Positions 2,388 to 49,059 of a stretch of 64,000 nt of DNA are shown in pieces (the first letter of the stretch is position 1; every line of letters starts with the position of its first letter). Under the pieces are notes generated by a model. That model did no database searches, was not told where the DNA came from, and was given only the letters and a program-made list of their open reading frames with translations. Source of the stretch: Octopus vulgaris (lineage: Eukaryota); assembly GCA_951406725.2 (NCBI GenBank), contig OX597821.1, positions 114,948,001-115,012,000 of the forward strand, read 5' to 3'. The position numbers and the translations under genes were made by a program.

Positions 2388-3531
2388 GTTTAGCGTCCGT
2401 TTTCCATGCTAGCATGGGTTGGACGGTTCTACTGGGGTCTGTGAAGCCAGAAGGCTTCATCAGGCCCAGTCAAATCTGGCAGTGTTTCTACGGCTGGATG
2501 CCCATCAGTTGATAAATTCTTTAAAATGTCTTTCATAAGAGGTTTTTCTAAATATTTAATAGAAAAACCATCGGTTGTATAGTTTTTGATAAACTACTTA
2601 TGTTTTTTTTAGAAAATATTGCGAGTGTTCTTCTCAGTTTCATCCATTTATGAAGGTTGATATGATGGAATGGCGGGGTCAATATCTTGCCGTATGTAGT
2701 TATGTCCCTTCAGGCTGTGAGTTCAAATTCTGCTGAAGTTAGCTTTTTACTTGTTCTCTTTGAATGGTTGGTATAATGAATACCAGTAAAAAACTGAGTT
2801 TGATCGAATGTGCATTCCCCCACCCCCACCCCTGCCTTGCACAAATTTCTGGCCATGTGCCAATATTGGAAATCAATTATGGCACTAGTATGGCCGTGTA
2901 GTTAAGAAGTTCAGTGCATACTGCGCAGGACACAGCCCCAATGTGCAGTGCCTATGGCAAGTGTCTTTTTTCTCCTACAGCCCTGGGCCAACCAGTGTGA
3001 ATTTGTGATTTTCATACTTGGAAACTGTGCAGAAGCCCGTTGTGTGTGTGTGCATGTCTTTGTGTTTGACTCCTTCCCCGTGCCACATCACTTGACAACA
3101 TCAACCAGTGTTGGTTGGTTTGTTTACATCCCCGTAATAGTGGTTCAGCAAAGGAGATTAATACAAAACAAGTACTAGACTCTCTACTAATCTCGATTCC
3201 AGGCTGAATGCTTCCCTGAGCCTTCCTCCTCTGGGACTTCGTGATTTTGACTTGTCGTCCATGCTTCTATAGTTTTATATTTTCCTGGGTTTGGGTGTTG
3301 GTCCTAACCAAATCCATTTTTACCTCTTAGAAGAGTTGATCCCTATAAGGTCTGGCCCCTCTCTTTGATGGCTGCCCTGAGGCCCTCTTGCATTCCTGTC
3401 TTAGCTCCCAGGCTATTAAAGGATACAAGCTATCCTGGCATAACTGATATTAAGCTTATTAAACAAGAAATTTGCAAGTTTTCTACATTATTTACATTTG
3501 ACAGATATTTGTCCTCATCTTGTTTGTTGTT

Positions 3532-3577
3532 AATACAACGTTTCGGCTGATATATCCTCCAGCCTTCATCAGGTGTC
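3532..3577 (-). ncRNA. Minimal type I hammerhead ribozyme motif (PLE-type), core intact
   Basis: Minus strand reads gacac-CTGATGA-A-GGCTG-gaggatatat-CAGCC-GAAA-CG-TT-gtatt: conserved core, 5-bp stem II, palindromic AACGTT stem III. Confidence 0.75.
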
Positions 3578-3639
3578 TTGGGGAAATTTCAAACCTGAGT
3601 TCTCATTGCTAAGGTATTTTCAATGTTATTGTTGCCGTT

Positions 3640-6531
3640 GTTGTTTTTTTTTTCTTCTTTCTTCAAATTTTCTTCCATTTCTTGCCGAGTGTTTTCCGTA
3701 CACCTAGGGCAGAGAAGCTCATTGTATGCAATCCCAGATTACACATGCAAATTCACAGGTAAAATATGTATTTAAAAAATTAATAAATAAATAAATTCAT
3801 GAATGGATGTTGTTTTCACAGTGATAATGCTCTTCACAGTACATGAGCCGTTCCAGTTAACACAACTTTTTGCACTTCCTGTAGGGATGGTAAGCCTGGT
3901 ATCATTTTCAAATAGGTTTCAGTACCTTTTTTTTATTATTCCTAGAGCTCCTGCAATCACTGGTACTGTAGTTGCCTTGAGATGCCACATTTTTTTCAAT
4001 TTCTATTAGCAAGTCTTTATATTTACTAATCTTGTCAAATTCTTTCGCTGCTATATTGTGATCGCAAGGAATACTCATGTCAATTAATAAACACATCCTT
4101 TTTGTCTGATCTTTTATGATAATACCCGGTTTATTAGCTTTTATAGTTTTGTTGGTATGTACGGGGAAGTCCCAGAGAATCGACACATTTTCTCCCTCAG
4201 TCACAGCTTCAGGATGGTGTTTATACCATTTGTCAGCGATTTTGATTTTATAATGCCGACATATTGTCCAGTGTAAATACTGGCCAACTCTGTCATGTCT
4301 TGCTTTATATTCTACAGGTGCTAAGACTCTACACCCTGAGATTAGGTGGTCTACAGTTTCAATCTCATTGTTACAGAATTGGCATTTTGGGTCAGCTCCA
4401 TTTTTTATCACATTGGCTTGGTAGTTACGGATTAATAAACTTTGGTCTTGAGCAGCTAATATGAAGAGCTTCGTAACCATTGATGTGTGTGTTTCTGGTC
4501 AGCATCAGCTTGTTTACTACAGGCCACATACTTGCCATGCAGAGGTTTCTGTTCCCATCTGCTAGCTAATTTTTCATGTGCTTTTGTCTTTGCAATTAAT
4601 TTTATTTTCTTTGCAGCAGCAGTTGGCACATTTCCTTCAGCCTGATCAATCTGGTAGGTATCTAAGAGATCGGTAGCAAATTTTTTGCTCTCTTTCAAGA
4701 TAGAGTGAAATTTTTTCAGTCTTTCATGTTTTTCAACAAGTTTTAGCATCCAATCGTTGGTTATTTCAAAGTATTTGGCCAGTCCAATTGTGGTGGTTTT
4801 GTATGTAATTTCAAGCTGGATGAAGCTTTGACTTCCCTGAGCTCTGGGAGGGTAAAGACGATTCACGTCTGCCTTTGGATGGTGCATCTTATTACAAGTC
4901 TGTAGCTTGCGGATTTTTCTGTCAATTTTCATTATTTCACTGGTATTCCAGTTAAGCACATTGAATCTATAAAGAACAACTGGGACTGCTAAGGAATTTA
5001 TGGCTAATACCTTATTATATGCATTCAGCTCAGACTTCAGGACTGCTCGAACTCCTCTATAACATTCCTTCCTAACCTTCTCCTTCATGCTTGCATGCTG
5101 GATACCTGAGCCTTCATTCATTCCTAGGTTTGTTCCTGCTCAAGTTCCTTTATTACTGTTTCAACATCTAATTCGATTGAACTTGACTTTACCAATTTCC
5201 CTTTCTTAAAAGTGGCTTTGGCACACTTTTCAAGGCCAAACTCCATCCCGATATCATCACTGAATCCTTTCACAGTATGTAATAATCCTTCAAGCTCTTC
5301 ATCACCTTTGCCATATAGTTTTAAGTCATCCATATAAAATAGATGGCTTATTTTCCTGTTGCCAATTTTGTAGCCATACCCTGTTCTATTCAGTTCACTT
5401 GAGAGGGGGTATTAGTGCTATGCAGAAAATTAGTGGTGAAAGTGAGTCACCTTGGAAAATGCCACAGTTTATGCTAATATTGTTTGAGCGCAATACTCCA
5501 TTAGAATCATATAATTGCAGCTTCGTGTTCTATAGTGACATATTATACTTTAAAAACTCTGATATCACAGGAGAAATTTTGAAAATGTCCTGTGATTTCA
5601 GAATCCACGAATGTGGTATGCTGTCAAAGGCTTTTTTATAATCAATCCATGAAGAACTGCGATTTCTGCACTTGTTAAGGCAGTTCTCAAGGATCATACA
5701 ATTAAATAGGAGCTGATATTTGCATCCGTATGAGCCTTGTCTGCATATTTTTTGTTCAGTGGGAAAGAGGTTATTCCCTTCCATAAACGTATATGTCTTT
5801 TCCACTAGAATAGATGTCAAAATCTTATAGGTAGTAGACAAACATGTTATAGGCCAGTAGTTTTTTGGGTCTTTGGTTTTGTTATTTTGGGGGAGGAGGA
5901 AGTAATACCATTTGCCATCCAGTGGGAAGATTTTTCCAAGTCTTTCATAATACTGTTAAATAGTATTACTAACATTTTGTGTGTGGATGAGAGTGATGAG
6001 AGCCAGAAATTTGGTATTCTATCAATACCAGGGGATTTCCACTTATGAGCCTTTGTTAGTGCCCTCCTTAGGTCAGCGATTGAGATGTCTTCTCATACCT
6101 GTTCTTGTAGATTTTTGTAGTCATCTTGGGTGTGTTTGACCCAGTCTGCGTTTTCATTGTATGGTTTCTCATCACTCCGGATCCCTTTCCAAAAGTTTTC
6201 AACTTCTTCCATTAGGGGTGGATTTTCAATGGTTATTTTTTCTTTCCCTATTTCCCTGTAAAATGATTTGGCATTGGATTTGAACATCTTATTTTGCTTG
6301 TAGTATTTGATTCTTTTCTCAAATCTGCGTATTCTCTGATCTTTTGCTTGAACTTTTTGTTTAAGTGTTTCTTTCACTGACATTAGTTCTTCTCTTGTTG
6401 AGAGTCCATGTCTCAGTTTCAGTTTGCTTTTCATTTTGAATTTGGTATTGTTGGCTTTTTGGGTGTTAAACAGCATCTTTCGATTACCTTAGAAACAGAG
6501 TAAATAATTTCATTTAACTTAAGATTGGGTT
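3640..6531 (-). mobile_element. Dong/R4-clade non-LTR retrotransposon, 5'-truncated and decayed
   Basis: RT motifs WIDYKKAFDSIPH, CGIFQGDSLSPL and HLFYMDDLK; zinc knuckle CQFCNNEIETVDHLISGC; RHD motif; RLE-type KP.III..D..CLLIDMSIP. Broken by stops/frameshifts. 5' end abuts (TAA)n at 6532-6548. Confidence 0.92.
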
Positions 6532-6551
6532 TTATTATTATTATTATTGAA

Positions 6552-6850
6552 GTCACTGCCTGGAATCGATACTCAGAATCTTGGGGTTAGTAACCTGTAC
6601 TCTTAACCACTACGCCATATGCCCATGGGCATATGGTTAAGAGCACAGGCTACTAACCCCAAAATTGCGAGTTCAATTCCAGGCAGTGACCTGAATAATA
6701 ATAATAGTAACATCGAAAATATCCTAGGAATGAGAACCCAGGTTTGAAATTTCCCCAAGACACCTGATGAAGGCTGGAGGATATATCAGCTGAAATGTTG
6801 TGTTAACAACAAACAAGATGAGGACAAATATGTCGAATGTAAATAATGTA
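6552..6850. mobile_element. Head-to-head PLE terminal-repeat module (tRNA-like cassette, (AAT)n, hammerhead)
   Basis: Inverted tRNA-like cassettes meet at ccatatgcccatgggcatatgg (axis 6625/6626). The right arm tail 6706-6850 is the reverse complement of 3484-3630. Confidence 0.75.
6759..6804 (+). ncRNA. Minimal hammerhead ribozyme motif (PLE-type)
   Basis: gacac-CTGATGA-A-GGCTG-gaggatatat-CAGCT-GAAA-TG-TT-gtgtt. Stem I gacac/gtgtt; two CpG-type changes relative to the 3532 copy. Confidence 0.7.
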
Positions 6851-9229
6851 CATAATTCCTCAACTTTTAAATATGGAATTGTAAGAAGTTTTCTGTTTCA
6901 TGTAGTCTTAATAACAGTTTATACAGTCATGCCTGACCAGGTAAAAACTATTAGCAACATCAATAATCATATTGAAGCCAATTTACTCCAGACTCTTCCT
7001 TGCAGTTGTCTCTCTCTTCTCTCTGCCTATTTTTTTACCACTAACAATTTCTGCTCTTTCTGAGCTGGTGTCATGTTACCTCCACCCAGGCATTCCAGAC
7101 TTCTCACTCCTCTTTTTATTTCATATCATGTCCAGCCACTCCCCTTGCACAAACTACTACACTTGATCCTTCTTCCCCACAACATTATCCCACTGGAATT
7201 TTTTTTCTCTCTGAGCATTGAATTGTATGTACTGTCTGAGAGAAATGGTAATCTCACCAATTCTTGTAGTGCCTACAGAAGTCTTGGTCATAATTCCTTC
7301 ATCAGACCAAATTTCAAAAGAAACTGACTGATTAGGAATATTAAAAACACCAAGTTTGATGCAAATTACTGGATTTTTACATGTCTACCACTGCTTTTTA
7401 AAGAATTGTCTTCATTTCTTTAAAAAATGGCAATGTGCTGCTTTTTATTTATTTTTATTTTTCAAAAAAATTCATATATTTTTATCATGTAATTTATTGA
7501 ATGAAATTAAATTTTTGGAAATTACTGAAAAAGGTTGTGTATTTTTGTGTTAAAATCATTTATATGTGAGGGGAAAAGATGGTGTGCAAACGGACATTAT
7601 TTTCTGTTGGTTTTTAACTGATTGACCTTTTAGTTGTTCTTTTGGCAGAGTTTCATGAATATCCATGATGTAATGACAGCTTATTTCATTGATACTGGAG
7701 AAAGATATGTTTATGGTGGAAGTGATCAGTGCCTGAATAGCAAAGACTCTTCTTCTTTGTCGTGTGAGTTACTTGGTGACACAAAACAAGCACCCAGTCC
7801 ATACTGCAGAGTGGTTGGTGTCAGCTGTAGATACGATGCCAAAACAAACATTCCAGTTCAACGTAATTCTCTGGCTTGTTGGATCCTGTTATATCCGAAT
7901 GGTTTGAACAAATACACTGCGACAGTGTAATAACAATATAATCAAACCAAATGGCAGTAACCACATGGAACGTAACAACAATCTTTTAAGAACCAACAAG
8001 CCAAGAAGCTAATGAGAACTGTAAACTTTGAACTATCAACACACAAACTCTGGAATTAGCACAATGATTTTATTGAAACCACAAGGGTTAAACAAAGAGG
8101 GGACAATACAAAGGACAAATGGGGTCAGGGACTTATTGAATGGTATTACATGAATTAATATATTATAATTTCAGATGAGAAATGAGAAACAAAAAATGCA
8201 TGGATGTGGAATGGGTTTGACCCCACCAACCACATTCCTGCATTGGACTGTTTACTTTGCCCTTTTTTACTCCGCTTAATTTGGCCCTTACATACCCAAC
8301 ATCTGGGATACTTTTTTCCATCTTCTTTTGTACTACGAACTACCTCACTTACTAAGACTGCTACTTTTTATATGTAGTGGTCCAGTCCATTTTTACTATG
8401 GGGCATTGTACTCTCACACAACAGATCCTGTTAAACTTTCCAACCCATGCCATCATGGAAAATGGATGTTAAGTGTTGATGATGATCATATAAGCTATAC
8501 TGGGGAGTTTTTTCTGAAAGTATTCATGTCAGTCTTCTATGTGTTTCAGTGAAGATGGTGAGGTCAAATTATAGAATCTTGACCTGTGGTTCAAATTAAG
8601 TCTTCACATCATCAGAGTTTATCCCAAAAATAAATTTTATAAAACAATTATGTATAAAGGGTACGTGGAGTTCTAAATAGCAGTTATATGTTGTGCTCCC
8701 AAACTCACACTAAACAAATCTGTATGTATATGTATGTTTTCTTTTATTCTTTTACTTGTTTCAGTCAATGAAATCGACCCCAGGACTTATATTTTGTAAG
8801 CCTGGTACTTATCCTAATGGTCTCTGCCAAACCGCTAAGTTACAGGGACGTAAACACACCAACATTGGTTGTCAAGTGATGATGGGGGGACAAACACACA
8901 CATACACAAACACACACACATATATGATGGATGTGTTTCTGTCTACTAAATTCACTCACAAGACTTTGGTTGGCCCGTGGCTATAGTAGAAAACACTTGC
9001 CCAAGGTGCCATGCAGCGGTAACCCCACACTATGTGGTGGGGAAGTAAGAATAATTATTACTTTATTGACCCCAAAAGGATGAAAGGCAAAGTCCACTTT
9101 GGTGGGGTTTGAACTCAGAACATAATGGACCACAAGAAATGCCATTATGTATTTTGTCTGATGCATGAATGAATCTATCAGCTCACTGCCTGAATAGAAA
9201 TAATAATAAAAAAAAAAATATTATAATAA

Positions 9230-20280: not shown

Positions 20281-20510
20281 GAAGCAAACATGCAAGAGGA
20301 GATAAGTCGGGTATAGCTGATCCTGTATGGAAAAACGGAGACTGCTTCCCCCTGTGCGATGAAGTTAAAATAATAGAGAACACCAATGGAAAACTAAAAG
20401 AAGCAGCACAAATGTTAGGACACAGCAACCTCATAAGCAGAACAAGTGCAGATATGAAGAGCATATGGGAACCGGTATTAAGGAAGGATAGGAGAATATT
20501 AGATTTATAA
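20281..20510 (+). pseudogene. Penelope-like element, C-terminus of the GIY-YIG endonuclease region
   Basis: GDKSGIADPVWKNGDCFPLCDEVKIIE...KLKEAAQMLGHSNLISRTSADMKSIWEPVLRK* fits the PLE EN tail pattern KS.IA.H.W..H...W..VKI..E....K.KEA.......W.P.L. Confidence 0.7.
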
Positions 20511-20765
20511 GCCCTAAAATTCACTCCATAATTGCCCATGGGCATATGGCGTAGTGGTTAAGAGCACAAGCTACTAACCCCAAGATTCCGAGTTCAATAA
20601 TAATAATAATAATAATAATAATACCTTAGGTTCGAAATTTCCCCAAGACACCCAGGTTCAAATTTTCCCTAAGACAACTGATAAAGGCCGGAGGGTATAT
20701 CAGCTGAAATGTTGTGTTAACAACAAAACAACAAACAAGATGAGGACAAATATCTGTCAAATGTA

Positions 20766-20770
<5 letters not shown>
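20511..20770 (+). mobile_element. PLE 3' terminal repeat: tRNA-like cassette + (AAT)n + decayed hammerhead
   Basis: A box TGGCGTAGTGG at 20547-20557, truncated B box gagttcaat, (AAT)n, then CTGATAA-A-GGCCG..CAGCT-GAAA-TGTT-GTGTT at 20673-20718. Same module as 6626-6850; another partial tail at 27650-27725. Confidence 0.72.
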
Positions 20771-20798
<28 letters not shown>

Positions 20799-20799
<1 letters not shown>

Positions 20800-21128
20800 G
20801 ACTCAAAGCAGAGACTGAAGGATTTTTAATTGCAGCACAAGACCAAAGCCTCCCCACCAGAAATTACCAAAAACATATAATGAAAAGAAACATAACAAGT
20901 AACTGCATAATATGTGGAGATGGACAAGAAACAATAAATCATATTATCTCTGGCTGCCCAGTCCTGGCTAAGAAGGAATATATTCACAGACACCACAGAG
21001 TTGGGACCTACATACACTAGAAGCTATGCCAACATTATGGAATAACAACAGAAAAAAGATGGTATAGACACACACCAGAAAAGGTCACAGAAAACGAGAA
21101 AGCAACCATACTCTGGGATATGCCAATA
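20799..21128 (+). mobile_element. Dong/R4 LINE fragment directly after (TAA)n
   Basis: GLKAETEGFLIAAQDQSLPTRNY..CIICGDGQETINHIISGCPVLAKKEYIHRHHRVG..KWY-type RWYRHTPEKVTENEKATILWDMP. Confidence 0.88.
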
Positions 21129-21861
21129 GTGGTATTAAACTGACCCCAGTATTTTATTGGTATTTTATATCATTGACCCCTGAAAAATGAAAGGCCAAGT
21201 TAGTCTTTATGGGATTTGAACTCAGAATAGAAAGAAATGTCCATAACTAAATATTATAAGGTATTTTCATCCAGAATCCCAATGAATAAAGAACCACTCC
21301 CACCCCACCACCAGCCCCATCGCCATTACCATCACCACCACCACTACTATGAATATATTTTCCTCAAGGGCCCATAGAAATAGTATATTAAGATACAGTG
21401 AGAAATAGTAAAAGTTTGTTAAATAAAATAAAAAAGTGACAACAATTTGAGGAGGAAATTAAAATTCACAGAATTCATTTTTAGAATTTATTAGTTTTAA
21501 AGAAAAAAGGAAATTAAAAAATGAGGAAATCTTTTTAATGATGGTGGTGGTGGCGGTGGTGGTGACGATTTCCTTTTTTTTTCAACTGAGGAGAATATAT
21601 TTAAAATTAAGACAGTGAAATACAGAGGTGGTTGCCACTATATGGAGTTAGAGATTGAGAGAAAAAATACAAATTATGAATTGGACAGAAATTGTATAGA
21701 AATGGTAAGGTTTTTAAAAAAAATTGTTTGTACTTTATTCTTTTAATTCTTTTGTCATTGGACTGTGGCCATGCTGGGACACATCCTTGAAGGGTTTGGT
21801 CAAACAAATTGGCTCTAGAACTTACGTTTTCTCTTTATATATATATATATATAAAGTAGAT

Positions 21862-24436: not shown

Positions 24437-25692
24437 TATATATATATATATATATAAAATGTATATGTGTGTGTGTTTGACCCCACCACTGCTTGACAAC
24501 TGGTGTTGGTTTGTTTACATCCCTGTAACTTAGTGGTTTAGTAAAAGAGACTGATAGAATAAATACTACACTTCAAGACAAAAAAAGGTACTCGGATTGA
24601 TTTGTTTCACTAAAATTCTTCATGGTGGTGCACCAGCATGGCCACAGTCCAATGACTGAAACAAGTAAAAGAATTAAGTTGGTATCAAGCTGGCAGAATA
24701 TGTTCGAGAAGGTACTTGGCAGCATTTCTTCTGACTCTTCATGTTGTGGGTTCAAATGCCATTGAAGCTGACTTTGCCTTTTGCCTTCCATCCCATTTGC
24801 CTTCAGCCCCTTTTTGCCTCCCAACCCATTTGCCTTCAACCCCTTTTTGCCTCCCACCCCTTTTGCCTTCCATCCCATTTGCCTTCCAACCTATTTGCTT
24901 TCACCCCATTTGCCTTCCATCCCATTTTTGCCTCCCACCCCTTTTGCCTTCTACCCCTTTTGCCTTCCACCCCATTTGCCTTCCATCCCTTTTGCCTCCC
25001 ACCCCTTTTGCCTTCTACTCCTTTTGCCTTCCACCCCATTTGCCTTCCATTTCTTTTGCCTCCCACTCCTTTTGCCTTCTAACCCTTTTGTCTTCCACCC
25101 CATTTGCCTTCCACCCCTTTTGCCCTCTACCCCTTTTGCCTTCCACCCCATTTGTCTTCCAACCCTTTTGTCTTCCACCCCTTTTGCCTGCTATCCCTTT
25201 TGCCTTCCACCCCATTTGCCTTCCACTCCATTTGCATTCCACCCCATTTGCCTTCCACCCCATTTGCCTTCTACCCCATTTGCCTTCCACCCCATTTGTC
25301 TTCCACCCCCTTTTGCCTCCCACCCCTTTTGCCTTCCACCCCATTTGCCTTCCATCCCTTTTGCCTTCCACTCCTTTTGCCTTACACCCCATTTGCCTTC
25401 CACTCCCTTTTGCCTCCCACCCCTTTTGCCTGCCACCCATTTTACCTTTCACCCCTTTTAGAGTTGATAAAATAAGTACCAGTTGAGTACCAGGGTCGAT
25501 GTAATTGACTTAATCCACACCCCTAAAATCGCTGGCTTTGCACCAAAATTTGAAACCATTATTAAGTTGGTGTTTGGAAAATGGATTAACATGAAATTTT
25601 GATGGAAAGTTTTAATTGAGATCGCTTCAAATGAGGAATTTGTATCATAGAACCAGGAGCAGTTTTGGACAAATTGTTATCAAAAGAGTTAA
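23674..25692. mobile_element. piggyBac-like MITE split by ~1.8 kb of nested SINEs
   Basis: 23674-23764 (ttaacccatttgctac...aataattttgtc) plus 25558-25692 (attattaagttggtgtttg...caaaagagttaa) together match the contiguous copy at 31786-31990 (...aataactttgtcattcataaactggtgtttg...caaaagggttaa). Confidence 0.65.
24773..25459. repeat. ~15-16 bp minisatellite (TTTGCCTTCCACCCCA-like), ~690 bp
   Basis: Tandem array within a family C SINE, between gactttgcctt and gttgataaaataagtaccag. Confidence 0.92.
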
Positions 25693-26640: not shown

Positions 26641-28501
26641 GTATATATACAGATACACACACACACACGTACAATATATATACACATACAATATATATAT
26701 ATATATATACACACACACATACACATGTACATATATATAAGTACATAATTATATGTATATGTATATATGTGTGTGTGTGTGTGTCTGTCTGTCTGTGTAT
26801 GTATGTATGGAAGGATGGATGGGTGGTTGGATGGATGGGCAGACATATAGTGTTTTAAGTATCTTAAGAATAGAAAATATTCAAGAACATCGCATCATTT
26901 GAGTTAGAAAGAAGGCAAAAAACTGATTCTGGTTCCAACGCTGGTCTAAGTGAACAGTTGATTTATGTTCCACAACGAAAAGAGATCAGAGAAAATATTC
27001 TGATCAGGTAGAAAATGGTAATGCCTGGAAATATTGAATTATTTTCACTTGGCACGAAGACGATTTTGTAAGAATATGATTTATATTTGATTGAACTGGT
27101 TTCACAGTATTGATTTCTTTCCAATGGACAAATTTATAAAGGGGACAACATGGGCTGCTGTGACATTCATGTTTTCTCATATCATCATCATCATCATCAT
27201 CATCGTGGCCAATGCCAGCGCCGCCTTGACTGGCTTCCGTGCCAGTGGCACGTAAAAAGCACCAACCAATCGTGGCAGTTGTCAGCCTCGCCTGACACCT
27301 GTGCTGGTGGCACGTAAAAAACATCCACTACACTCACGGAGTGGTTGGCGTTAGGAAGGGTATCCAACTGTAGAAACACTGCCAGATCAGACTGGAACCT
27401 GGTGCAGCCTTCTGACTTCCCAGACCCCGGTCAAACCGTCCAACCCATGCTAGCATGGAAAACAGATGTTAAACAATGATGATGATGATGATGTGGCGAG
27501 CTGGCAGAATCGTTAGCATGCTGGATGAAATGCTAAGCAGTATTTCGCTCATCACTATGTTCTGATTTCAAATCCCGCTGAGGTCGACTTTGCCTTTCAT
27601 CCTTTTGGGGTTGATAAATTAAGTGCCAGTTGTGTACATATGGTGTAGTGGAGGGTATATCAGCTGAAATGTTGTGTTAATAGCAAACACGATGAGGACA
27701 AATATCCATCAAATGTAAATAATAATAATTATTATTATTATCATGAAGGCAGCGAGCTGGCTGAATCATTAGCACACTGGGCAAAATGCTTAGATCCAGT
27801 TTGCCTGTCTTTATGTTCTGGGTTCAAATTCTGCTGAGGTCGACTTTGCTTTTCATCCTTTCAGGGTCGATAAATTAAGTACCAGTCAAGTTCTGGGCTT
27901 AATGTGATTGACTATCCCCCTCCCCACAAATTTCAGGCCTTGTGCCTATAGTAGAAAGAATTATTATTATCATCATTATCATCTTCTTTCAATCTGTTTC
28001 CATTTCTTGCCGAGTGTCTTCCTGACACCCAGGGCAGAAAAACTCACTTATATTCATTGGTAGGCCACTAAAATAAAGACACCAGATTGTTCATTTACAA
28101 AGCCATGTGATAGAGAAAATGGGAGGCTGCAAACTTTTCCACTCTGGGCACAAGGCCTGAAATTTTGGGGGAGGTGGGGGCCAGTTGATTAGATCGACCC
28201 CAGTATGCAACTGGTACTTAATTTATCGACCCCGAAAGGTTGAAAGGCAAAGTCGACCTTGGCAAAATTTGAACTCAGAACGAAGGATGCAGCAAACTGG
28301 CAGAGTCATTAGCATGCTGGACGAAATGCTTAGCAGTATTTTGCCTGTTACTACGTTCTGAGTTCAAATTCCACCGAGGTCAACTTTACCTTTCGTCCTT
28401 TTGGGATCAATAAAGTAAGTGCAATGTTACACACTAGGATTGATGTAATCGACTTGTTCCCCTCCCCCCAAATTTCAGGCCTTGTGCCTTTAGTAGAAAG
28501 G

Positions 28502-40759: not shown

Positions 40760-41240
40760 TTGTAATGTACCCTTAGAGAAATTCATCTTCTCTCTCTGAC
40801 ATATATAACATAAATACAGACGTAGCAGATAACAGCCAACCTTCGGCCGCTTGGGTGCAGTTGTGTCCACTACTCTGATTGGTTGGTTTTGGTGCAGTTT
40901 GTCTCCTGCTTTATTTCACGCCAATGTGCGACCCAACCAATCGCAGCCTTCTGATAAGGTCCCATGACACAGTCTTCTAAATTCTCTTCTGGAGCCTCCT
41001 AATTTGCTATAAAACACAGCTATTCATCGAATCTCGTCTTATCAGAAGGCTGCGATTGGTTGGGTCGCACATTGGTATGAAATAAAGCTAAAGACAAACT
41101 GCACCAAAACCAACCAATCAGAGTAGTGGACACAACTGCACCCAAGCGGCCGAAGGTTGGCTGTTATCTGCTACGTTCATATTTATGTTATATATGTCAG
41201 AGAGAGAGAGAGGATGAATTTCATTAAGGGTACACTACAA
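40760..41240. mobile_element. Fold-back MITE with ~200 bp inverted arms
   Basis: Arms 40760-40958 and 41038-41240 are near-perfect reverse complements around a ~80 bp spacer. Confidence 0.9.
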
Positions 41241-48053: not shown

Positions 48054-48499
48054 ATGTATATATATATATATATATATTCTTGGCTTAACAGCTCTCATTG
48101 TTTGTTTTTACTGTTTTGTTCTCACTGTCCTGTTCTTGTTTCCACTTTCACCCTCTGCAAAAAATCCCAAATTTTATTTAATTTACTTTGTGGGAAGGAC
48201 TGTTTCAATGAAGTCGTGTCTTGTCCTTGCCTTTGAATTGTGGAGTAGATGAAACAGAGACAACTGAAGAAGGGGAATATTCTTTATGTTGTATATCTCA
48301 TTTCTCTGTTTTTTTTCGTTGTCTGAAAAAATGTTCGTTTCTATGTTTTTGTTTTTAAGTTTCCGTTTCTCATTGTATTCAACGTTTTTTTGATGTCCTG
48401 TACCCATATATGCATGTATATATACATATATATGTAGGTATGTACATATATGTATGTATATATGCATATATTTATATATTATTTATATTATATATATAT

Positions 48500-49059
48500 C
48501 ATAAGGGACGTTAGCCATCCGAATGTGGCTAGGGACAGGGCAGGGCGGTGGGGGTGTTACTGATGCATTTAGCCCCAGGCGATCATCAACGTCACCAGAA
48601 GGGCTGACGCCATCACGGCGTCCTCTAGCCTGCAAAGGGAGATCATTCCCCGAAGAAGCGGATGCCACATACGGACCCAGGTTTCAAGGTGTTTGCCTAT
48701 TGTCAACGTATGGCAGGCATGCCCCTCGACGAACGACTCTCTGTGCAGGCTATCTATATAAAGATTTTCACAGTAAATACATTTACTGATGTAGAAAATC
48801 TGTTCGACAGCAATAATAATTCTCTAAACGAGGTATAGACAGTAACTGCTCCATAACATAAGGGACGTTAGCCATCCGAATGTGGCTAGGGGACAGGGCA
48901 GGGCGGTGGGGGTTCTGGTGACGTTGATGATCGCCTGGGGCTAAATGCATCAGTAACACCCCCACCGCCCTGCCCTGTCCCTAGCCACATTCGGATGGCT
49001 AACGTCCCTTATGTTATGGAGCAGTTACTGTCTATACCTCGTTTAGAGAATTATTATTG

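Follow-up and report, generated by a model that had tools for sequence, protein, structure and literature searches.

The window analysed here, a stretch of 64,000 nucleotides of Octopus vulgaris DNA (GenBank assembly GCA_951406725.2, contig OX597821.1, positions 114,948,001 to 115,012,000 of the forward strand), contains two copies of the terminal repeat of a Penelope-like element (PLE), placed head to head and split by a long interspersed nuclear element (LINE). The initial annotation had proposed a palindrome of tRNA-like and hammerhead ribozyme sequences hidden by this LINE, and alignment within the window bears this out. Nucleotides 6532-6609 reverse-match 6634-6710 (87% over 78 nt), the outer arms 3484-3628 and 6708-6850 share 92% identity over 145 nt, and the axis lies at 6625/6626. 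The palindrome is larger than the ~450 bp, ending at 6850, that had been annotated: its right arm extends through a missed 33-nt tail that ends at 6883 and is absent from the left arm. Without the LINE, the palindrome measures ~510 bp and is asymmetric.

A single target site duplication (TSD) of 9 bp, AAGTTTTCT, brackets the whole palindrome together with the LINE. It lies at 3476-3484, where its last base is shared with the arm end, and at 6886-6894, where it is preceded by 2 extra bases. One 9-mer around the whole unit indicates that the palindrome is a single insertion that was split afterwards. For the same reason, separate insertion of the two arms can be rejected, and the left pieces bear no insertion signatures of their own.

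Each arm is a copy of the pseudo-long terminal repeat (pLTR) of the element. The left copy lies on the minus strand. Its outer part (3484-3640) holds the start of the N-terminus of an open reading frame (ORF) and a minimal hammerhead at ~3535-3590, and has a short (S) end without tail; its inner part (6532-6624) holds a tRNA-Arg-like head with intact A and B boxes, followed by an AAT tract. The head-to-head junction (6620-6631) coincides with a hairpin at the 5' end of the pLTR. On the plus strand, the right head (6627-6710) consists of a 10-nt start, an 8-nt gap through the A box, a B box with one change and the AAT tract. It is followed by the right outer part (6711-6850), with the ORF start codon and a minimal hammerhead that has two C-to-T changes at the flanks of the GAAA core, and by the tail (6851-6883), which forms a long (L) end resembling the tails described in PMC3846280 and in the available part of PMC11167929.

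As the initial annotation stated, the left A box is intact and the right one is deleted; the 8 missing nt lie between two TGG repeats. The right head, with its 10 nt, gap and remainder, resembles a stub attached to an almost complete partner. An identical gap recurs in another copy, L072, in which the head is joined to the ORF, and hence the gap may be a later deletion. The axis usually has a central CG (72 of the first 100 ORF-joined matches, hand count), and the perfect palindrome found here is probably the result of CpG decay. The arrangement is not due to chance, as all 40 scored candidates of a junction query span the junction. The locus itself is a decayed relic without sign of function.

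The LINE occupies 3640-6531 on the minus strand, in the same orientation as the left arm (its ends are uncertain by a few bases), and is broken by stops and frameshifts. It encodes a reverse transcriptase (RT; PF00078, E 9e-9 and 5e-6), followed by what we take to be a cysteine knuckle and a restriction-like endonuclease, as in proteins of the ~1200 aa type. The insert aligns to aa 294-1192 of a 1192-aa relative and is 5'-truncated, because the match starts only at aa 294. Presumably it is of the Dong/R4 type; we base this clade name on sequence motifs and on the TAA target, since the relatives carry no clade names. Dong targets TAA repeats for insertion, according to the available part of PMC3812793, and the LINE indeed lies in the AAT tract of the left arm. 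An RT-coding insert within this tract supports the annotated later insertion of a LINE into the PLE module. Elsewhere in the window, a second coding fragment of the Dong/R4 type (20771-21130, open frame 20721-21020) directly follows the AAT run that ends another PLE copy around 20534, and the 3' end of the Dong-type LINE has a further short counterpart at 27982-28056 (80% identity).

The repeat and its coding element

The palindromic module is the pLTR of an autonomous Penelope/Poseidon-type element, and not a separate short interspersed nuclear element (SINE). All 30 fetched loci with the endonuclease coding end of this family run on into the same hairpin and head, and longer copies encode a PLE-type RT (PF00078) and a C-terminal endonuclease in a single ORF. 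In three copies (L307, L308 and L309) the ORF begins inside the pLTR and passes through hammerhead and tail. L307 is full length, with a pLTR at both its 5' and 3' ends, and its start lies 2 nt upstream of the tRNA-like head. The linkage to the coding end and the ORF start within the pLTR identify the module, and confirm the PLE origin proposed in the initial annotation. An independent, tRNA-derived, non-coding SINE family was considered and rejected, because the head belongs to the pLTR of a coding element (the 30 loci and the 5' end of L307).

The copy at 20534 had been described as an unfolded form of the module. It shares the axis and head, but it is not a free tRNA-hammerhead module: it is a separate insertion of the same family (20300-20771, plus strand), in which an open frame encoding the endonuclease C-terminus ends at stop 20510 and is joined to a 3' pLTR, and hence the 3' end of a truncated coding element. 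A third, short pLTR fragment (27649-27732, plus strand) matches the 3' part of the repeat in sequence.

Protein relatives (n=92) mostly combine PF00078 with PF26215, and GIY-YIG PF01541 occurs in 2 of them; the relatives include proteins with 60-70% identity. The 69-aa endonuclease fragment of the window has no GIY-YIG match in Pfam and was recognized as endonuclease from its motifs. We take the family to belong to the Penelope/Poseidon clade, rather than to Neptune or Nematis, on domain order and sequence motifs. Further marks of endonuclease-bearing PLEs are present, namely an inverted 5'-truncated copy, a one-sided tail of 30-40 nt and a TSD. A non-LTR retrozyme, defined in the available part of 10.64898/2026.07.22.740005 by tandem direct repeats that each have a type I hammerhead, does not fit, as the copies are dispersed inverted pairs or single arms.

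The minimal hammerhead that had been annotated in the repeat has a conserved core: over 54 arms, its columns are mostly 83-97% conserved, with lower values at CpG columns (read by eye against PMC4209133). The available part of that paper describes minimal PLE hammerheads with the same CUGAUGA core, the same extra base before helix II and a palindromic 15.2-16.2 region without loop 3, predicted to act as a dimer. We saw no notable difference from these. Rfam gave no hammerhead match in the window or in one further copy, and monomer folds were weak for the hairpin as well as the hammerhead region (z -1.0 to -2.5), with no hammerhead formed as monomer. The initial annotation also spoke of two divergent units running from a Pol III promoter to a ribozyme. 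As working units these find no support, as the copy is old, its right A box is broken and both of its hammerheads bear substitutions.

The family is abundant and old. Five insertions in 180 kb (18 stretches of 10 kb at round positions on contigs C1-C6) extrapolate to ~78,000 insertions (range 25,000-180,000) in a genome of 2.8 Gb and 227 contigs, and the copies differ by ~6.6% from the commonest letter at non-CpG sites, which points to an old family. Other PLE copies were met as well. Seven loci (L376-L382, e.g. G000:C15:43315500-43324500) belong to a different and young PLE family, used as control, whose open frames span 760-1181 aa and whose copies are 92-98% alike and lie in partial tandems. 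L091, L092, L142 and L144 (G000:C17, 68-79 Mb) are four copies (97-99%) of one PLE-holding region, that is, a segmental duplication, and L091 and L092 were therefore rejected as two long PLE copies. Beside another PLE, L386:1-2990 is a tandem array with a period of ~490 nt and units that are 99% identical.

The palindromic layout is already known for PLEs; the tRNA-like start of a coding PLE is the unusual part. Pen2a_Av, Pen2_Av and Pen3a_Av of Adineta vaga (PMC3846280) have the same inverted, head-to-head pLTRs with a palindrome at the pLTR 5' end and junction, an optional tail of ~31 bp on one side, a TSD of 8-10 bp, the first ORF codons in the pLTR and AT-rich repeats as targets. In contrast, the Octopus family consists of tens of thousands of mostly pLTR-only pairs, and the first part of its pLTR is a tRNA-like head containing A and B boxes, whereas the pLTRs of A. 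vaga have a TATA/Inr-like motif. Poseidon of Anolis carolinensis (PMC11167929) shares an ORF with RT and C-terminal GIY-YIG and a hammerhead that overlaps the ORF start, while the available part of the paper describes no tRNA-like head and no analysis of inverted junctions.

Pol III-type promoters in repeats have precedents. In the available part of PMC10886601, the TRIMp3 elements Cassandra, Helenus and Ajax have a small-RNA-derived Pol III-type promoter in the terminal repeat, possibly acquired via SINE insertion; they differ in being non-coding LTR elements whose autonomous partners are expected to use Pol II, whereas the Octopus head lies in the repeat of a coding element. Likewise, the schistosome SM-alpha SINE-like repeats (PMC6765202, PMC8490949, each available in part) combine a Pol III-type promoter with a downstream type I hammerhead, but they are short, often tandem and non-coding, and the available text describes neither insertion as inverted pairs nor an RT/endonuclease ORF attached to them. 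Among the papers listed by literature searches, none had a title that concerned tRNA-headed pLTRs or twin priming by PLEs; Repbase, Dfam and the repeat libraries in the supplement of PMC13282606 lay outside this search and may hold the family.

Junctions and ends across the genome

Exact junction patterns were searched genome-wide, and reversed-pattern controls gave 0 matches. The fold-back junction matched 569 times (perfect palindromes are counted twice) and the ORF-joined junction 402 times. On contig C1, hand counting reduced 45 fold-back matches to 32 loci, beside 26 ORF-joined matches. The breakpoint census called for in the initial annotation thus shows a sharp peak at the axis.

Pairs were studied in the first 93 of 1,059 position-ordered matches to a 33-nt tail pattern, which represent 90 loci; this sample is biased towards less diverged copies, and pairs had two chances of entering it. 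Head-to-head pairs were found at 60 loci and one arm only at 30. A TSD of at least 8 bp flanks 31 of the 60 pairs, compared to 16 of 300 shuffled flank pairs. The outer ends of the arms fall into two classes, short (S) and long with tail (L), which were combined as LS in 46 pairs, SS in 6 and LL in 2, with 6 pairs unclassifiable. Hence, one long and one short end occur together in 46 of the 54 classifiable pairs (p 1.4e-7 against 50%). The inner ends lie at the axis in both arms of 5 pairs, in one arm of 32 and in neither arm of 23, where independence would give ~7, 27 and 25 (42 of 120 arms at the axis), with the caveat that arms broken at the AAT tract may conceal some axis ends.

Among 72 heads, 34 start without fold-back, 23 of these within the first 6 bases of the head. 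The others comprise 20 heads with an inverted stub of 6-22 nt, 11 ORF-joined heads, 4 arms (2 loci) that are fully folded back and 3 truncated heads. Another 11 starts cluster at +12 to +17 of the head, and the stub joints display microhomology by eye. Stubs of 6-25 nt make up most of the fold-backs. The polarity of the loop at the axis is still readable in 46 listed junctions, of which 27 are long on the direct side, 9 on the opposite side and 1 on both, while 9 scored as long on neither. Inspection by eye resolved these last nine into 5 direct-long and 2 opposite-long junctions with indels and 2 that are truly short. Full palindromes form a minority (2 to 5 of the 90 loci; 1 of the 46 readable junctions) among the products of an insertion pattern that is already known.

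At 26 loci both arms lie in the ORF, and at five of these (L081, L247, L252, L253, L369) one arm ends at most 20 nt from the start of the other, as is classic for twin priming on a single RNA. At L253, the long arm omits exactly the stretch that is carried by the short arm, within a 9-bp TSD. Short fold-back stubs occur at ORF-internal breaks in 3 of the 26 loci (L064, L069, L367), and fold-back is therefore not confined to the hairpin. A separate case is L127:237-1564, a near-symmetric head-to-head pair with a 13-bp TSD, whose arms meet ~400 nt into the ORF, a long way from the pLTR hairpin.

Formation of the inverted pairs

The back-to-back pairs are probably formed when both cut target strands prime reverse transcription and the resulting cDNAs are joined at a fixed RNA start. 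The element's protein would cut the two target strands ~9-14 bp apart. One 3' end would then prime at the distal RT start, where the tail ends (L), and the other at the proximal start (S). Each cDNA would head to the RNA 5' end and in many cases run off where the tRNA-like head begins; we take this first base of the head as the transcription start, probably of Pol III type. Microhomology would serve to join the cDNA ends, in many cases once a short fold-back had formed at the hairpin, and a full palindrome would result when both cDNAs reach the head. The Dong-type LINE would arrive later by targeting the AAT repeat. In vitro, the Poseidon protein of the anole cleaves and extends both strands, and it initiates reverse transcription at either of two neighbouring internal sites, which delimit the tail (available part of PMC11167929). 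These two start sites, together with the long/short pairing, the independent inner ends and ORF loci such as L253, favour two primers, one per start site.

A comparable process is known from L1 elements, in which twin priming by both target strands gives a head-to-head inversion within one TSD, with microhomology at the junction. L1 arms do not overlap, whereas most arms of the Octopus family do, both starting at two fixed sites.

Several observations weigh against joining of two primed cDNAs. Most arms overlap; simple twin priming from a single RNA would not produce this, and strand displacement or two RNAs would be needed. Fold-back is common, with stubs on 20 of the 72 heads, and 45 of the 46 readable junctions are not full palindromes; the stubs could be full palindromes that later lost part of an arm. 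The long arm lies about three times more often on the side predicted by snap-back (27 versus 9), which fits some snap-back. One arm stands alone at 30 of the 90 loci, and no discrete RNA start appeared in one RNA-seq run. Comparison of the arms within loci does not decide whether they share a template, as they are as unlike as arms between loci (12.1% versus 12.2%, 27 loci). Shared variants between arms numbered 22, compared to 16 +/- 5 when permuted (p 0.10; p 0.05 with CpG sites included), a test without power in which several arms were poorly projected.

Alternatively, snap-back at the 5' hairpin could build the whole second arm, on a cDNA or an antisense template, with asymmetry arising by later deletions. 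This was the initial annotation's explanation of the inversion, and self-priming has been proposed and argued for in rotifer Penelopes (PMC3846280). The junction peak at the hairpin, where fold-back is about equal to ORF-joining (32 versus 26 loci on C1, hand count), the frequent inverted stubs, and the hairpin formed by ORF-joined sequence at the axis, though with a z of only -1.1, all agree with it. Yet, a snap-back copy cannot exceed the outer end of its template, and in 15 of the 32 pairs with one arm at the axis this arm is short while its partner has the tail (the reverse holds in 11). Symmetric junctions show no excess (5 against ~7 expected among 60 pairs), the strict long/short pairing is left unexplained, and at least 9 of the 46 readable junctions have the opposite loop polarity. 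At our locus, the right arm has 33 nt extra and the left arm 8 nt extra, and a simple copying of one arm from the other would require a later deletion. We therefore consider snap-back of a whole arm unlikely. Real fold-back at the internal palindrome is retained from that explanation, in the form of the stubs of 6-22 nt, but not the synthesis of a long second arm.

It is more improbable still that the palindrome itself is a master unit amplified whole, or a separate SINE that borrows PLE enzymes: most insertions are indeed pLTR-only (11 of 72 heads are ORF-joined), full palindromes are numerous in absolute terms (all 40 scored candidates), and long arms in both loop polarities allow that inverted arms have been templates, but full palindromes are a minority, the tail occurs on either arm and the same head is present in the 3' and 5' pLTRs of coding copies. 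No arm-specific diagnostic changes were seen in 27 loci, a comparison with little power. Solo pLTRs may nevertheless act as SINE-like sources.

The way in which PLEs make inverted ends is called still undefined in the available part of PMC8557442. The abundance of the Octopus family yields statistics on this process, and the long/short pairing and the independence of inner ends are predictions that the in vitro system already in use could test.

The tRNA-like head and the polymerase

The head of the pLTR has canonical A and B boxes. It is closest to tRNA-Arg(TCG), with a score of 57.6 versus 25 +/- 5 for shuffled sequence, among 27 distinct tRNA genes of Octopus that form an incomplete set of types. 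In the window and one copy, the Rfam tRNA model stayed below cut-off with only 13 bits (E 6.8). ARAGORN called no tRNA, and a simple pattern found no A/B-box pair in 5 loci of other PLE families. A metagenome scan gave 3 distant PLE fragments, none with a usable 5' end.

Judging from its sequence, the whole element may be read by the polymerase that makes tRNAs (Pol III). Pol III stops at TTTT. No TTTT is common to half of the copies at any of 2,307 ORF columns, and none in the pLTR reaches 17% of copies. Scattered TTTT amounts to 0.25-0.37 per kb; the density is 1.7 for Dong-type LINEs with equal T content and 2.2-3.2 for PLEs of other families. Synonymous resampling predicted 1.22 TTTT per kb for the PLE ORF, where 0.37 was observed, whereas three control sets agreed with their own predictions (1.88 vs 1.74; 2.53 vs 3.18; 2.30 vs 2.18). 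In rank of depletion among the 256 four-mers, TTTT is 3rd in the PLE ORF and 94th, 155th and 61st in the control sets. The deficit represents one ancestral sequence with only 13 shared TTT sites. Depending on the null model, none of these would be extended to TTTT with a probability of ~0.005-0.1, and the pattern was noticed before testing. Hence, the terminator-free ORF is suggestive only as a sign of Pol III use.

It is quite possible that the tRNA-like head came as a passenger, through the old insertion of a SINE into the pLTR of an element transcribed by Pol II, and that the fixed starts reflect stalling of RT at the RNA hairpin; this would be compatible with the joining of two primed cDNAs. 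Known PLE promoters are of Pol II type, with introns (available part of PMC8557442), and the second cluster of starts at +12 to +17 and the single evolutionary sample behind the TTTT deficit also agree with a passenger head. Conversely, most blunt starts lie at the hairpin apex, which is the first base of the head, and not at the 3' base of the hairpin, full-length L307 begins at the head, and TTTT ranks among the most depleted four-mers in the ORF of this family but not in the three control sets. Cutting by RNase P was discarded as cause of the fixed start by reasoning only, as there is no acceptor stem.

A more far-reaching and tentative proposal, which we regard as doubtful in its entirety, is that a coding Penelope-type element captured a tRNA-Arg promoter, gained full-length (~2.9 kb) Pol III transcription, lost its TTTT terminators and produced solo pLTRs as self-made SINEs. 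If the tRNA head were the functional promoter, the family would be an unusual case of Pol III transcribing a coding retroelement, and would raise the matter of how uncapped RNA is translated. One RNA-seq run (13,199 reads, ~6% of the run) showed both strands equally, with a depth that tracks the copy-number profile; it contained no site where many molecules begin or end, in a library that cannot show a Pol III start. The 410 loose ends at the fold-back point mirror the genomic junction.

Three other repeats in the window were noted. At 40789-41207 lies an inverted repeat with 170-nt arms, 95% complementary, around a 79-nt spacer, which is unrelated to the PLE family by BLAST. A second inverted repeat, at 48496-49017, has 105-nt arms that are 99% complementary and 312 nt apart, and 24778-25522 is a tandem array with a 16-nt period.

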